Positions 39,830-49,938 of a DNA stretch of 64,000 nucleotides are shown here, piece by piece. Positions within the stretch are counted from its first letter, which is position 1, and each line of letters begins with the position of its first letter. Origin of the DNA: an uncultured Planctomycetia bacterium (GTDB lineage: Bacteria; Omnitrophota; Gorgyraeia; 2-02-FULL-51-18; JAGOUK01); assembly GCA_964430735.1 (NCBI GenBank), contig CAYSFB010000001.1, positions 60,082 to 124,081 of the forward strand. The letters are read 5' to 3'. The position numbers and the translations under genes are program-made. The notes under the pieces were generated by a model. It had not been told where the DNA came from. It worked only from the letters and a program-made list of their open reading frames with translations, and did not search any database.

Positions 39830-41592
39830 CGCGCCGCCGTTCCGGCCGAGATGCGGGCCGCCGCGCGCCGCGCATTCCCGCCGTCCGAATACGCCCAATA
39901 GAATCGCAGCAGGTCTGGCCGAACGTTCGGCAGCCGGCCGCCGAACGCTTTTTCCAGACATCGGTCCAGAGCTTCCCTGGACTTGACCTCCGTCACCAGA
40001 CCCGACGCCTCGCATCCCAATTGAGAAGGCCCGGGCGCGTAGTTGAGCAGGATCACCGGCTTTTTGAGCGCGGCCGCTTCGAACATGACCGACGATTCCG
40101 CCGTCACGACGACATCCGCTTGGGCTTCCAGCGCATGGATGTCCGACGCGCCGGGAACGACTTCCGTTTCGGTATCTCCGACAGTCTGCAGCCAGCCGCG
40201 GTAAATCGATTCGTCGTCATAGTGCGGCTTGACGACGAGGCGGGCGCCCGCCTGCTGCGCTGAAGCGGCCAGGTCCAGCAGATAGCGCTGCGTGATCTCG
40301 CGGGTGTGGGTTTCCGGGCACATGACCTCCATCACCGGAATCAGCCTCGAAAAATCGTACGGGATCGTCGTGCCCGCGCAATACAGGACGGTCTTACCCG
40401 GCTTCCCCGCGGCGGATGCCGGCAGCCCCGCCAGACGGTCGTATCGCGGCACGCCGGTCACGTGGAGGCGGGCCGGATCGAACCGCCAGCTTCGGTACAC
40501 ATTCTTCTCGAAGTCCGAATTGACGAGCGTGTCGGACGTTCCCAGATATTCCGTGATGCCGTCCAGATCGGCTTCGACCCGGTTCATCGGCACTCCATGC
40601 GACACCACGAACGACGGGATCCTCTCGAGGCGCGCGGCCAGCCAAAACGCGCGCCGGATCGACGTGTCGTCGTCCAGAAGAACCCCGGACGGACGCAGCC
40701 GCCGCATCCAGGAGCGGAGTCGGTTGAATTCAAAAAAGTCGTTCATAAAAGGACGCTGCCAGTTCTGGATCCAGATGGCGTTGGCCGACGCGGGTAAACG
40801 GAGCGTTCCAACTTCCAGCTGCCCGGCGCCCAGCATTGCTTCGGTCGGCGCAAAGGGACAGTCCGGCATGCGCCTCATCCTCATCACGCAATAAATCAGA
40901 CCGAGACGCCGGCAATTCATCCAAGCGGACGGGCGCAGATCCGTGTCGGCATAAACCAGCCGATGACCGGCTGCGCGCAGCGGGGCGAATAAAGGCTCCA
41001 GATGTCGAAAAGAGCCGGAAACGACCAGCGTCTTCCGGCTACCGGAGACCGCCAAGCGCGCTGCAGCCATCGCATTGCTGACCGGAACGAGTCCGGCCAA
41101 GAGCCTCCGGATCAAAGAGGCCGGAGCGGGCGGAGCGGGCGCCGGTGCCGGCAGGAGCCGCACCGTATCGGGTCGGCCCCGTTCCTCAAACCACGCCTGT
41201 AGACTGCGGACGAACATGAAGTCCGCCCCCTCGCACACAAACACCGCCTCCGGCAGACGACCGGCGAATTTGAGGTCCCACATCGCAAAATATTTGGCCA
41301 ACCGGATCAAGTCTGACCGCACGTCATAAAAATGGTTTTCAAGAAAAATATACTTGTCGGGTTCCTCCTCATGACGGCGCGACAACTCGACAAATGTCCG
41401 GTAAGCCCATCGGTTGATCGCATCGAACTGGCTCCTTAGATCGGACTGATCGAGCAGTTCTGCCGGACGGCCGGAGCGGCGCGACGCCTCCAGCGAAGCC
41501 CGGTCCGCGCACCAAAACACGTCGGCCGGCCCCGCTGCCTCGGCAGCCGCTTTGTATTCCGCTTCCGACGTCACGATATAGACGGCGCTCAT
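39826..41592 (-). CDS. CDP-glycerol glycerophosphotransferase-like protein (TagB/TagF family, GT-B)
   Basis: C-terminal blocks VLYCAGTT, LVVKPHY and DIHALEAQADVVVTAESSVMFEAAALKKPVILL resemble TagF LYAPTWR / KxHP / D(I/L)LITDYSS motifs. A KpsC/KpsS-type capsule transferase is an alternative assignment. Confidence 0.45.
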   Translation of the reverse strand: MSAVYIVTSEAEYKAAAEAAGPADVFWCADRASLEASRRSGRPAELLDQSDLRSQFDAINRWAYRTFVELSRRHEEEPDKYIFLENHFYDVRSDLIRLAKYFAMWDLKFAGRLPEAVFVCEGADFMFVRSLQAWFEERGRPDTVRLLPAPAPAPPAPASLIRRLLAGLVPVSNAMAAARLAVSGSRKTLVVSGSFRHLEPLFAPLRAAGHRLVYADTDLRPSAWMNCRRLGLIYCVMRMRRMPDCPFAPTEAMLGAGQLEVGTLRLPASANAIWIQNWQRPFMNDFFEFNRLRSWMRRLRPSGVLLDDDTSIRRAFWLAARLERIPSFVVSHGVPMNRVEADLDGITEYLGTSDTLVNSDFEKNVYRSWRFDPARLHVTGVPRYDRLAGLPASAAGKPGKTVLYCAGTTIPYDFSRLIPVMEVMCPETHTREITQRYLLDLAASAQQAGARLVVKPHYDDESIYRGWLQTVGDTETEVVPGASDIHALEAQADVVVTAESSVMFEAAALKKPVILLNYAPGPSQLGCEASGLVTEVKSREALDRCLEKAFGGRLPNVRPDLLRFYWAYSDGGNARRAAARISAGTAAR

Positions 41593-42344
41593 AACCGGAC
41601 CGGTATCCCCTTGGACGCCAGGAAGCGCTTCGCCTCCATGGGCGTCTGCTGAGTAAAGTGGAAGATGCTGGCCGCGGCCACCGCGCTCGCCCGCCCCTCC
41701 TGGACCGCCTGGGCCATGTGCCCGTATTCTCCGGCGCCGCCGGCCGCGATCACCGGGATCGAGACTGCCGAGGTGACCAATCGAATCAAGTCAAGGTCGT
41801 ATCCCGTCATCGCCCCGTCCCTCTCGACCGATGTCACCAGGATCTCGCCGGCTCCCATGACTTCCAGCTGACGCGCCCATTCCGCCGGCTTCTTGCCGGT
41901 CGGCCGGGATCCGCTGTGGCTGTAACATTCATATCCCCCGGCCGTTTTCCGGCAATCCATGCTGCCCACGAGACACTGGGAACCGAACCGCACCGCGGCT
42001 CGCTGTAGAATCTGAGGATCTCCGTAACAGACCGTATTCAATGCAACCTTATCAGCCCCCGCCAAAAGCAGCGACCGGATGTCGTCAACGTTGCGAATCC
42101 CTCCGCCGACCGTCAACGGAACGAAGCAATCGCAGGACCAATCCCGAATGCTGTCGATATCCGGACCGCGGCCTTCCTCAGTCGCGGTGATATCAAGCAA
42201 AATGAGCTCATCTACTTCCCGTGCGTTGTAGACGCGAATCGCCGGCAGCACCGTTCCGACGCGGCGCCAGCTTTCGAAGGCGACGCCTTTGACGAGACCG
42301 ACATTTTTCCACAGCAGCGTGGGGATTACGCGGGTCTTCAGCAT
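41589..42344 (-). CDS. HisF-like cyclase subunit of a glycan amidotransferase (WbuZ-like)
   Basis: TRVIPTLLWKNVGLVKGVAFE...ELILLDITATEEG (HisF TIM-barrel signature). Confidence 0.8.
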   Translation of the reverse strand: MLKTRVIPTLLWKNVGLVKGVAFESWRRVGTVLPAIRVYNAREVDELILLDITATEEGRGPDIDSIRDWSCDCFVPLTVGGGIRNVDDIRSLLLAGADKVALNTVCYGDPQILQRAAVRFGSQCLVGSMDCRKTAGGYECYSHSGSRPTGKKPAEWARQLEVMGAGEILVTSVERDGAMTGYDLDLIRLVTSAVSIPVIAAGGAGEYGHMAQAVQEGRASAVAAASIFHFTQQTPMEAKRFLASKGIPVRL

Positions 42345-48456: not shown

Positions 48457-48908
48457 TGGCGTCTCCTTTTGCCTTTTTTGTCCATCCGTTCGTAGGTGTT
48501 CTGGATGTGGGTGAAGCCCAGCCGCTCAAACAACCGGATCGAATCCGGATTGGCCGGGCTGATGTTGGCCAAAAATCGCGGGGTGGAAGCGTGGCGGCTC
48601 ATGAGCAGGCGGATGGCAGCCTCGCCGTAGCCGCGCCCGCGATGCACCTTAAAAATGAAGACTCCGATCTCGCCCGCCTTCGAAAGATAGATCGCCCCGC
48701 GCGCGTCGCCCGCCGGACCGCTCCCGTCCTGGATCAGGTACCACGCCCGATAGGGCCGGGACTTCACGAAACGCCGGTGCTCGGCCAGGCTCGGCATGCG
48801 GCGGTGGCTGATGTTGACGTGTGATTCGCGTTCTCCCAGCAGGCGGTACAGCGTTTCGACGGCGCCCGCTTTTTTGTAAACGTCCGTCAGCCGCAGATCA
48901 GCGGACAT
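48453..48908 (-). CDS. GNAT N-acetyltransferase, PseH-like
   Basis: Start [13 protein letters not shown] at 48908. HRGRGYG acetyl-CoA motif; [13 protein letters not shown] resembles the PseH WRNhP...EH..F block. Confidence 0.5.
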
Positions 48909-49938
48909 CTTGCCTCCGTATCCCGCGTCCGGACACGATGGCGCGGCGGGCGTGAAGCGGACCGACCGCTTCGAGATGCCGGGGATGCATCCCCTTGGGC
49001 TGCCGACCCGGACGCAAAACGGCGATGTTCCGACCCATGAGCAACCGCTCCCCCTTCCGTATATCGGCGACGGCCTGCACGGCGCGCTGGGCATAGGCAT
49101 GAAGTTCGCGTTCAGCGGGAAGTACGGCCTTGACCCCCGTGCCGAGCATGCGTTCGCACGCACGCACGGCGCGGACCATGTCCTTCAGCTCCTCCGCCGT
49201 CACGGCGTGCGCATGATCCGGACCCGGAAGGCGGTTGTCGAGGGTGAAGTGTTTTTCGATGCAAACGGCACCGAGCGTGACGGCGGCGATCGGGGCGGTC
49301 AAGGGGTCCCGTGAATGATCGGAGAATCCCACCGGCACGCCGTACCGCTCCCTCAAAAAAGAAATAGTCTTCAAATTGAGCGCGTCCTCCGGAGCCGGGT
49401 AGGCGGCGGTGCATTGCAGCAGCGTGAGCCTGCGGCCGCCCTTGCGGCGAAAATAACGGACCGCCCAATCGATGTCCTCGACTGCACTGGCGCCCGTCGA
49501 CAGCAGCAGGGGTTTGCCGGACCGGGCGGCGAGCTCCAGAAGCCGTGGATACGTAATCTCGTAGGAGGCGATTTTGTGCATTCGGACATAAGGATCGACC
49601 GCGCGGAAGTCCTGCTCGGAAAAAGCGGAGGAAAGGAACCGGATCCGGCGCTGCCGGCACCGCTGCGCCAACCGGGGAAGCAGATCATACGGCATGGCCA
49701 TTCGCGCGAACAGTTCCGTGATGGATTCCCGGATGCCTCGCTTGGAAAGGTAGCCGCTGGCACCGGCGTTGGCCACATACACCTGATCCGCCCGAAACGT
49801 CTGGAACTTGACCGCATCCGCGCCGGCTGCGGCGGCGGCATCCACGAGCTTCATGGCCATCGCCTGGTTGACGCGGGCTTTCTCGGAAACGCGCCAATTC
49901 GAACCCGCCTCGGCGATCACCAACGTTTTGGTCCGCAC
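48898..49938 (-). CDS. pseI: nonulosonic acid synthase, NeuB family (pseudaminic acid synthase-like)
   Basis: Probable GTG start at 49938 (VRTKTLVIAEAGSNW). AVKFQT block and a C-terminal SAF domain. Confidence 0.7.
   Translation of the reverse strand: MRTKTLVIAEAGSNWRVSEKARVNQAMAMKLVDAAAAAGADAVKFQTFRADQVYVANAGASGYLSKRGIRESITELFARMAMPYDLLPRLAQRCRQRRIRFLSSAFSEQDFRAVDPYVRMHKIASYEITYPRLLELAARSGKPLLLSTGASAVEDIDWAVRYFRRKGGRRLTLLQCTAAYPAPEDALNLKTISFLRERYGVPVGFSDHSRDPLTAPIAAVTLGAVCIEKHFTLDNRLPGPDHAHAVTAEELKDMVRAVRACERMLGTGVKAVLPAERELHAYAQRAVQAVADIRKGERLLMGRNIAVLRPGRQPKGMHPRHLEAVGPLHARRAIVSGRGIRRQDVR

Follow-up and report, generated by a model that had tools for sequence, protein, structure and literature searches.

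The stretch of DNA analysed here, the window, comprises 64 kb (64,000 nucleotides) of contig CAYSFB010000001.1 from an uncultured bacterium and is a Gram-negative envelope region. In its minus strand nine genes, overlapping or abutting one another, were confirmed at 41589-49938, a span which runs exactly from the stop of a HisF-like gene to the start of a NeuB-family synthase gene. They encode predicted enzymes for a nonulosonate of the pseudaminic acid (Pse) type, a Wzx-like flippase and a WbuX/HisH/HisF set of proteins, referred to as the acetamidino triad, and we consider it probable that the operon makes a CMP-activated, Pse-type acetamidino nonulosonate for a flippase-dependent surface glycan. 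An original prediction had named these genes, their coupling in contiguous order and such a product; the identifications and the coupling hold, and the product is a reasonable proposal. The genes and the features adjoining them are the following (start codons were picked by upstream Shine-Dalgarno-like sequences):

50197..50226, minus strand: sigma-70-like promoter candidate (TTGACT, 18-nt spacer, TG, TACATT), just 5' of the first gene of the operon
49940..50179, minus strand: HTH_17 (excisionase/MerR-like) DNA-binding protein, 79 aa (Pfam PF12728 on the identical contigs L084 and L089)
48898..49938, minus strand: NeuB-family synthase, SpsE-like, 346 aa (GTG start after GGAAGAG)
48453..48908, minus strand: GNAT N-acetyltransferase, 151 aa (Pfam Acetyltransf_3/1)
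47488..48456, minus strand: PseB, inverting UDP-GlcNAc 4,6-dehydratase, 322 aa (TIGR03589)
46296..47495, minus strand: PseC, UDP-4-amino-4,6-dideoxy-N-acetyl-beta-L-altrosamine transaminase, 399 aa (TIGR03588)
44849..46312, minus strand: MOP-family (Wzx-like) flippase, 487 aa, alternative start 46279 (Polysacc_synt_3)
44121..44852, minus strand: SpsF-type cytidylyltransferase, 243 aa (TTG start after GGGGGAG; CTP_transf_3)
42958..44124, minus strand: WbuX (TIGR03573)
42338..42961, minus strand: HisH-type class I glutamine amidotransferase, 207 aa (TIGR01855, Pfam GATase)
41589..42344, minus strand: HisF-like (WbuZ/AglZ-type) barrel protein, 251 aa (best match WbuZ, TIGR03572)
39826..41592, minus strand: soluble glycosyltransferase B-fold (GT-B) protein, 588 aa, overlapping the HisF-like gene by 4 nt

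If the longest start is taken for each, adjacent members of the nine genes share 4 to 17 nt. In an independent annotation of the identical Logan contig L084 the Wzx-like and WbuX genes start at 46279 and 44109, which gives gaps of 16 nt and 11 nt at these two junctions. Minus-strand genes of high third-position GC follow one another through the region, as part of a very long string of minus-strand genes running downwards from about 50.2 kb. In the portion 3' of the HisF-like gene each gene shares 4 nt with the one after it, the order being the 588-residue GT-B protein, a PMT_2 glycosyltransferase C-type (GT-C) protein, a YfhO-like protein, a PMT GT-C protein, a methyltransferase, two GT2 glycosyltransferases, a short-chain dehydrogenase/reductase (SDR), a hexapeptide acyltransferase, a 394-aa protein and WecB. 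Within a long and closely packed operon, which lies in a region of the lipopolysaccharide (LPS)/O-antigen type, the nine genes form the front, biosynthetic part. The extent first given to the unit, 41589-49938, is correct for the genes that it encloses and too narrow at both ends: the unit starts at the HTH_17 gene and runs into the GT-B candidate and the GT-C genes.

The HTH_17 gene is the first of the unit and its stop lies 1 nt ahead of the synthase start. Its product is 81% identical to that of the gene at the same position in the related locus L083. A gene of this family opens the nonulosonate operon in all four loci compared (the window, L083 4615-4854, L088 2580-2819 and L092 8696-8953). 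It may be a dedicated regulator or the relic of a mobile cassette. The promoter candidate is a consensus match only and amounts to weak evidence, five such sites being present against 3.3 expected in shuffles; a divergent promoter-like site on the plus strand (50262-50289) faces it.

Nonulosonate enzymes and the acetamidino triad

Families were called with the NCBIfam equivalog and subfamily models at their curated cut-offs, together with Pfam, and solved relatives were sought by sequence search of the PDB. PseB reaches 513 bits against TIGR03589 (cut-off 408), with FnlA at 260 (cut-off 730) and LegB at 65 (cut-off 475), and the STDKA and YGATK motifs are readable in its translation. PseC is likewise above the cut-off of its model (TIGR03588, 447 bits; cut-off 423.5), the LegC family scoring 190 (cut-off 420).

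The synthase matches Pfam NeuB with 259 bits and carries a SAF domain. Its closest solved relative is SpsE of Bacillus subtilis (1vli, 223 bits), ahead of PseI (8h2c, 152) and NeuB (110). SpsE, SpsF and SpsG make legionaminic acid (Leg) from a different dehydratase product (PMC7439481), and the choice between Pse and Leg is therefore decided by PseB and PseC and not by the synthase. Judging from these two enzymes and from the genomic context, the synthase is probably a pseudaminic acid synthase in the PseI role, which is supported by the fact that its subfamily normally occurs together with PseB, PseC and PseG. A nonulosonate that is an isomer of Pse, its other stereochemistry set by the UDP-removing enzyme or by the SpsE-like synthase, is very unlikely: PseB and PseC pass their equivalog cut-offs while LegB, LegC and FnlA score far lower, and the relatives of the synthase lie among genes for PseB, PseC and PseG. 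What speaks for such an isomer is that the hydrolase which would fix C2 of the hexose, and so C5 of the product, was not found in the window, and that the nearest solved synthase belongs to a legionaminic pathway using SpsF- and SpsG-type enzymes.

The acetyltransferase has general GNAT Pfam domains only, and its AlphaFold2 (AF2) model (pLDDT 90) resembles generic GNAT proteins in Foldseek, with SpeG at the top. The order NeuB-GNAT-PseB is kept in L092, where the GNAT is 58% identical. From this position the protein would acetylate the 4-amino group as an analogue of PseH.

The cytidylyltransferase matches CTP_transf_3 with 97 bits and the PseF model with only 26 (cut-off 205.7), and we take it to be not PseF-type but SpsF-type (COG1861), a type that presumably also includes FlmC. 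In the PDB it matches 6oew ('Cytidylyltransferase', 151 bits), and homologues of 38-48% identity are present in many related Pse loci. The protein would be the CMP-nonulosonate synthetase, a function that it may, by analogy, have in common with the non-PseF FlmC. The flippase is barely over the gathering score of Polysacc_synt_3 (26 bits against 23) and shows about 11 hydrophobic segments in a crude hydropathy scan. A homologue 62% identical to it bears the JGI name 'O-antigen/teichoic acid export membrane protein', and the one in L092 matches PF01943 and PF13440.

The assignment of the triad begins with WbuX, which scores 314 bits with TIGR03573 (cut-off 203), as had been predicted; the PP-loop SGGKDS stands in its translation and the PDB entry 8wex ('N-acetyl sugar amidotransferase') is matched with 155 bits. 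The HisH protein is above the cut-off of TIGR01855 (223 bits against 105) and also matches Pfam GATase; the cysteine of GICLGMQ and the histidine and glutamate of FHPE are readable, and its gene shares 4 nt with that of WbuX and 7 nt with the HisF-like gene. The HisF-like protein is under the cut-off of each model that it matches, namely WbuZ TIGR03572 (277; cut-off 299.7), AglZ/HisF2 (258; 310) and HisF (246; 294.6). Asp11 of HisF is essential for the cyclase reaction. In an alignment with HisF structures this residue (CLDV) is replaced by Leu (TLLW), with the equivalent of Asp130 kept, which fits a role as ammonia channel or partner and argues against histidine biosynthesis. The HisF-like protein is thus predicted to be an ammonia channel or partner rather than an imidazole glycerol phosphate (IGP) cyclase, and HisH would be the ammonia donor of the triad.

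The same three genes occur in compact Pse clusters of other phyla. In L020 (Nitrospira) the order is PseC-WbuX-HisH-HisF-cytidylyltransferase-NeuB-PseG and in L027 (Thermoleophilia) PseC-WbuX-HisH-HisF-cytidylyltransferase-PseG-420-aa protein-NeuB, the triad proteins being 54-63% identical to those of the window. The triad thus recurs in Pse clusters, and a Pse cluster carrying it is known biology. The comparison of the HisH/HisF-assisted WbuX with Legionella, made in the original prediction, fits both the NCBIfam names WbuXYZ/AglXYZ and the cluster of Legionella pneumophila Sg6/Sg12 (PMC3694923).

These neighbours bear on the idea that the triad amidinates another N-acetyl sugar of the same glycan, of the ManNAc, QuiNAc or FucNAc type, and stands beside the Pse genes only through operon packing. 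The WbuX family has been implicated in FucNAm (E. coli O145, Pseudomonas aeruginosa O12) and in ManNAc3NAmA (WbpG, AglXYZ), and among the genes of the window are two for non-hydrolysing WecB and several for SDR epimerases/dehydratases. Moreover, a Sphingomonas exopolysaccharide cluster has WbuX, AglZ/HisF2 and HisH in a list of genes none of which has an obvious nonulosonate function (PMC11340318). Nevertheless we regard this as quite unlikely, since the triad is flanked by PseC and the cytidylyltransferase in L020 and L027 and by the cytidylyltransferase and the GT-B protein in L088, and in relatives of the operon the same slot holds AsnB, acyl carrier protein (ACP), AMP-ligase, Antibiotic_NAT, LuxC/E and FkbH, which fits diversification of the N-acyl groups of one sugar.

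Related loci and the position of the proposed acetamidino group

The closest relatives of the operon are found in L081/L083 (Logan contig; JGI 3300055001), which are 100% identical to each other over a 13.1 kb overlap and whose proteins are 39-96% identical to those of the window, most of them 60% to 85%. The order in L083 is HTH_17, formyltransferase-like protein, NeuB, HAD-NUDIX fusion, PseB, PseC and Wzx; then an opposite-strand methyltransferase, a 538-aa protein of no assigned function, the cytidylyltransferase, WbuX, HisH and HisF; and finally two methyltransferases, the GT-B protein, PMT_2, YfhO and PMT. The formyltransferase-like protein (4859-5473, 204 aa) has intact N/H/D motifs and lies 5' of the synthase, and the GNAT is absent. 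The HAD-NUDIX fusion (6515-7855, 446 aa) has an intact-looking Nudix box and stands between the synthase and PseB.

Other loci keep the Pse genes and the GT-B protein and differ in what lies between them. L092/L085 (GCA_023247915.1) has HTH_17, NeuB, GNAT, PseB, PseC, Wzx and the cytidylyltransferase, followed in the place of the triad by a methyltransferase, DUF4910, AsnB, an 87-aa protein, an AMP-ligase and Antibiotic_NAT, and then by the GT-B protein. In L086 PseB, PseC and Wzx precede a LuxC/LuxE/AMP-ligase/SDR/Antibiotic_NAT cassette, which is followed by GT-B, PMT_2, YfhO and PMT. L094 contains PseC, a class III aminotransferase, an aldo/keto reductase, the cytidylyltransferase, GNAT, NeuB, Wzx, DUF4910, GT-B and an FkbH-like protein. 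In L088 the order is HTH_17, a PseB-like SDR, a second SDR, NeuB, GT2, the cytidylyltransferase, HisH, a HisF-WbuX fusion of 691 aa, GT-B and Wzx, and the cluster (2812-9993) has no aminotransferase.

The swapped slot, from Wzx or the cytidylyltransferase to the GT-B protein, corresponds to 41589-44124 in the window, 14772-20417 in L092, 3083-10004 in L086, and 8573-9925 and 11850-13670 in L094. The cassettes of the relatives comprise AsnB, the 87-aa carrier-like protein, AMP-ligase, Antibiotic_NAT and DUF4910 in one case, LuxC, LuxE and SDR in another, and the FkbH-like protein in a third. The slot that holds the triad looks like a hot spot for nonulosonate diversification.

Two of these loci also bear on which N-acetyl group is converted. 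It had been proposed that the product is a 7-acetamidino sugar; nothing was found to support N7, and the comparative hints favour N5. In L083 the WbuX is 77% identical to that of the window and the formyltransferase-like protein replaces the GNAT; if N7 is formylated there, only the acetyl group on N5 is left for WbuX. In L088 the triad is present without an aminotransferase, so that only N5 would bear an acetyl group, and the cluster would predict a 7-hydroxy, 5-acetamidino 9-deoxy nonulosonate. From these gene contents a 5-acetamidino product (Pse5Am7Ac-type) appears somewhat favoured over the 7-acetamidino one.

The missing PseG and the 588-residue GT-B protein

A PseG-type hydrolase had not been recognised in the window, and this is borne out: NCBIfam scans of the candidate proteins of the window gave none at the level of TIGR03590, and a PseG hidden Markov model (HMM) built from 22 proteins of related loci, run with filters off on all stop-to-stop frames of the six-frame translation of the 64 kb, found neither PseG nor a pseudogene remnant. 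The HMM matched only the C-terminal halves of a GT28 monogalactosyldiacylglycerol (MGDG)-synthase-like protein (14448-15614, 44 bits) and of the 588-residue GT-B protein (21 bits). The same HMM finds PseG in 36 related loci; with TIGR03590 (cut-off 153.6) the proteins of L018, L029 and L035 score 224, 212 and 183 bits, and that of L027 scores 127, below the cut-off.

Several proteins were considered as the missing hydrolase and rejected. The two WecB-like proteins (27545-28681 and 58227-59465), which had been suggested as hydrolysing NeuC/LegG-type enzymes, are non-hydrolysing WecB equivalogs, with 361 and 308 bits for TIGR00236 (cut-off 210) against 51 and 57 for NeuC TIGR03568 (cut-off 236). 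None of the proteins at 28685-29869 (soluble), 59348-60685 and 51041-52498 (both polytopic, the latter MptB-like) resembles PseG, and tblastn found nothing in the window that corresponds to the HAD-NUDIX fusion of L083. In L083 itself the fusion is a candidate for a PseG-independent system of UDP-sugar cleavage, by analogy with GDP-mannose mannosyl hydrolase, a Nudix enzyme that frees the sugar from a nucleoside diphosphate sugar.

The lack of PseG recurs in the relatives of the operon. Relatives of the synthase, gathered by querying genome contigs, are scattered over many phyla at 42-59% identity, the best being only 59% identical, and most of their loci also have the same SpsF-type cytidylyltransferase. 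Counting loci with at least 42% identity, flanks of 5 kb or more on either side and a homologue of PseB or PseC, PseG is present in 20 of 23 well-covered loci that do not carry the family of the 588-residue protein. It is found in none of the five that pair a NeuB-family synthase with this family (the window, L083, L092, L088 and L094, within the available DNA). The contrast (Fisher p ~6e-4) is suggestive and not proof, the loci being mutually related and the spans covered differing. In Myxococcales/Deltaproteobacteria metagenome-assembled genomes a PseG domain occurs within open reading frames (ORFs) of about 600-670 aa (L028, L038, L041, L047-L052), and the ORF at 7989-9935 of L028 matches the SpsF-type cytidylyltransferase too and is a cytidylyltransferase-PseG fusion. 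Such tight linkage of the two functions elsewhere makes the cytidylyltransferase of the window, with no PseG, more conspicuous.

The step that releases UDP may be covered in several ways. A pseG gene may lie elsewhere in the genome, as can be imagined from Caulobacter, where the gene numbers put flmAB, flmH, flmCD and neuB at separate chromosomal sites (PMC7591256). The hydrolase step may be bypassed in part, by analogy with the spsG mutant of B. subtilis, which retains Leg at a reduced level (PMC7439481). It may also be carried out by a non-canonical hydrolase, or by the 588-residue GT-B protein.

This last protein has no hydrophobic segments in a hydropathy scan and matches Pfam Glyphos_transf with 32 bits. 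Its motifs SHG, GVPRYD, VLYC, KPHY and TAESSVMFEA look TagF-like to us. The AF2 model (pLDDT 93.2, pTM 0.92) has a GT-B fold, and Foldseek against the PDB returns UDP-GlcNAc 2-epimerases first (8e-12), then TarL, NeuC, TagF and MurG; these ranks have near-equal scores and the fold alone does not, therefore, decide the function. A word-indexed homology search gave only two matches for this protein and three for the Wzx-like protein, which led to the syntenic loci, and a profile of 12 family members found two loci only in a metagenome scan. An exhaustive HMMER search gives 333 family representatives at E<=1e-3, of which 33 reach E<=1e-30; the full-length relatives are mostly of 590-630 aa. Invariant or nearly so are G193, H197, E308, D309, S331, H332, G333, E362, G380, P382, R383, D385, K455, H457, S500, E505, D570 and R576. 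In the loci examined the family always adjoins PseB/PseC/Wzx or NeuB/cytidylyltransferase modules.

When 61 family members were scanned, 55 matched the BFO_1060 glycosyltransferase model (best 1.5e-15, some over nearly the whole model), 53 TIGR04396 ('surface carbohydrate biosynthesis protein'), 49 Glyphos_transf, 32 Epimerase_2 and two PseG (best 0.003). The relatives score 28-57 bits with the BFO_1060 model, all far under its cut-off of 200, and for this reason the 588-residue protein is not filed as a member: the homology is remote and the family a separate one. The most economical reading is that the protein is probably a CMP-nonulosonate glycosyltransferase.

A different picture emerges from profile-profile comparison, in which the family matches the PseG alignment (97.7%, E 2e-12, 311 columns, about the full length of PseG) better than the only controls compared (GT28 4.5e-8, WecB 1e-6, GT4 no match). 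His197 aligns with a near-invariant His column of PseG, presumably the catalytic His17 of the C. jejuni enzyme. It could be argued from this, from the absence of PseG in all five loci with the family and from the top Foldseek hits, which fall into the fold family of UDP-GlcNAc 2-epimerases with the hydrolysing NeuC among its members, that the protein is a distant replacement of PseG which hydrolyses UDP-2,4-diacetamido-2,4,6-trideoxy-L-altrose, the operon then being complete and the transferase lying elsewhere. We consider this unlikely. The invariant His332 of SHG, which we take to be the TagF/TarL-type catalytic histidine motif, stands opposite a gap in PseG, and the protein exceeds PseG by about 250 residues, with some 185 extra N-terminal residues ahead of the aligning stretch. 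No PseG structure is among the top 50 of Foldseek, the BFO_1060 and Glyphos_transf matches are far better than those of the PseG model, and BFO_1060-family proteins act as nonulosonate transferases in Tannerella; moreover the cluster would be left without a recognisable CMP-sugar transferase.

The displacement of PseG might extend beyond the window, as a lineage-wide PseG-independent route to Pse-type sugars in which the canonical hydrolase has been displaced in the window, L083, L092, L088 and L094. The displacing enzyme could be the GT-B family of about 600 aa, as a remote full-length PseG homologue with a conserved loop His, or in L083 it could instead be the HAD-NUDIX fusion between synthase and PseB. 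In a further, speculative variant the GT-B protein would charge polyprenyl phosphate with the nonulosonate, which the neighbouring GT-C enzymes (PMT_2/YfhO/PMT) would then transfer in the periplasm. We hold these readings to be rather unlikely.

Returning to the proposal of a Pse-type acetamidino product, a number of results weigh against it. The synthase, whose assignment to the NeuB family stands, is below both equivalog cut-offs that were to separate its possible roles (NeuB TIGR03569, 276 bits, cut-off 400; PseI TIGR03586, 233, cut-off 340), and its nearest solved relative, SpsE, serves the legionaminic acid pathway in B. subtilis (PMC7439481). The GNAT had been called PseH-like, which is right for its position and not for its family: the NCBIfam scan gave no match to the PseH model at E<=1e-5, and PseH structures are absent from its 37 PDB sequence matches and from the Foldseek top 50. 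No recognisable UDP-sugar hydrolase is encoded in the 64 kb and the pathway is to that extent incomplete. The 588-residue protein itself reaches only 15 bits with the BFO_1060 model NF046086 (E 0.008). Finally, WbuX-family enzymes also act on sugars that are not nonulosonates (FucNAc, ManNAc3NAcA), and there are two WecB genes in the window.

With these reservations the following pathway can be proposed. PseB and PseC would convert UDP-GlcNAc to UDP-4-amino-4,6-dideoxy-beta-L-AltNAc, a chemistry that follows from their equivalog families, and the GNAT would acetylate the 4-amino group. After removal of UDP by an enzyme not encoded in the window, the SpsE-like synthase would condense the free sugar with phosphoenolpyruvate (PEP) to a pseudaminic-acid-type nonulosonate, which the SpsF-type cytidylyltransferase would activate to the CMP-sugar. 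WbuX, by the mechanism of its family, would turn one N-acetyl group into an acetamidino group, using ATP by way of its PP-loop; the ammonia would come from glutamine hydrolysed by the HisH-like subunit and pass through the Asp11-less HisF-like barrel. The BFO_1060/TagF-like GT-B protein would then most probably move the nonulosonate from CMP to a lipid-linked glycan, and the MOP flippase of the operon would export the glycan that bears it.

Acetamidino nonulosonates place a positive charge on sialic-acid-like surface sugars and shape serotype as well as phage and immune recognition. The operon offers an example, from an uncultured lineage, of Pse genes, the WbuX/HisH/HisF triad, a flippase and a candidate transferase in one unit, and its relatives, with their exchanged N-acyl cassettes, provide a natural library of nonulosonate diversification. 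Only one point, the absence of PseG throughout these loci, could alter textbook knowledge: if the genome truly is without PseG, a new enzyme does the UDP release, and it would be useful for the chemoenzymatic synthesis of Pse derivatives.

The envelope region and known systems

The low-coordinate end of the window holds AmtB/P-II, an LpxL-like acyltransferase, PriA, uracil-DNA glycosylase and the GT28 MGDG-synthase-like protein. LPS core and O-antigen functions are represented by a GmhB-like HAD protein, three GT9 heptosyltransferase-like proteins, a Bac_transf initiating transferase, a Wzy_C/O-antigen-ligase and several GT4 and GT2 glycosyltransferases. Polytopic genes of the GT-C type are unusually dense and comprise four PMT_2, one PMT, one YfhO-like, one MptB-like and one unannotated protein with eight transmembrane segments. 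These genes, and two genes of the operon located by tblastn with L081 proteins, are placed as follows:

10267-11895, 34010-35923, 35946-38213, 38210-39829, 51041-52498, 53620-55143, 59348-60685 and 60657-62282, minus strand: polytopic GT-C-type genes
32360-33193, minus strand: second GT2 glycosyltransferase (77% identical to the L081 protein)
29898-30479, minus strand: hexapeptide-repeat acyltransferase (65% identical to the L081 protein)

A module of WecB, SDR, GT2 and PMT_2 (with SGNH/AlgX) at 53620-59465 is kept upstream of the operon in L083 and L092. The GT-C density together with this conserved module suggests extensive periplasmic decoration from polyprenyl-phosphate sugars. The soluble 394-aa protein that follows the hexapeptide acyltransferase (28685-29869, minus strand) has no Pfam or NCBIfam match. 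L088 has a 394-aa gene at the equivalent position, with only faint Pfam hints of GH76/ulvan lyase.

The GC content falls to 0.547 at 50001-52000, from about 0.62. A lone plus-strand methyltransferase gene of lower GC (50281-51051) lies there, divergent from the operon and beside the MptB-like GT-C gene. The dip may mark the junction of separately acquired modules.

With the CMP-Pse pathway of Campylobacter and Helicobacter (PseB, C, H, G, I and F, and PseA) the window shares PseB, PseC, a NeuB-family synthase, activation with CMP and an amidotransferase of the WbuX/PseA family. It differs in having no PseG, a GNAT that is not PseH-like and a cytidylyltransferase that is not PseF-like, in providing the amidotransferase with dedicated HisH and HisF-like partners, and in placing the genes in an LPS/O-antigen-type operon with a flippase and not in a flagellin glycosylation island.

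In Caulobacter crescentus FlmC is cytidylyltransferase-like with no homology to PseF, and together with FlmA, B, H, D and NeuB it sufficed for FlmG-dependent flagellin modification in E. coli (PMC7591256). Both systems use a GNAT, loosely PseH-like in Caulobacter, and a PseF-unrelated cytidylyltransferase-like protein; unlike the window, Caulobacter has FlmD (PseG) and no acetamidino triad, and its target is flagellin. The Sps system of B. subtilis has in common with the window SpsE, as the nearest solved relative of the synthase, and an SpsF-type cytidylyltransferase; it differs in making legionaminic acid from the product of the SpsM dehydratase and in including the PseG-like SpsG (PMC7439481).

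The O-antigen cluster of L. pneumophila Sg6/Sg12 contains GNAT, PseG, cytidylyltransferase, HisF, HisH, an 'LPS biosynthesis protein', DegT and CapD, and, according to the reference list of the same paper, non-Sg1 strains carry a homopolymer of a 5-acetamidino-7-acetamido nonulosonate (PMC3694923). The window has neither the PseG nor the class III aminotransferase and aldo/keto reductase of the Legionella cluster.

BFO_1060 of Tannerella forsythia strain 92A2 is the orthologue of Tanf_01245 and TFUB4_00887, which knock-outs have identified as transferases of Leg/Pse derivatives (PMC5420450). These transferases are soluble, TagB/GT-B-like and encoded beside Pse or Leg genes (PMC5420450, PMC5378307), and the sugar of T. 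forsythia ATCC 43037 is Pse5Am7Gra (PMC5378307). The 588-residue family differs from them by its scores far under the cut-off of their model and by its additional N-terminal region of about 185 residues.

The triad of the window has the same three-protein architecture as WbuX/WbuY/WbuZ of E. coli O145 and AglX/AglY/AglZ of Methanococcus maripaludis. These two systems are thought to act on sugars of the FucNAc or ManNAc3NAcA type, whereas in the window, L020, L027 and L088 nonulosonate genes surround the triad.

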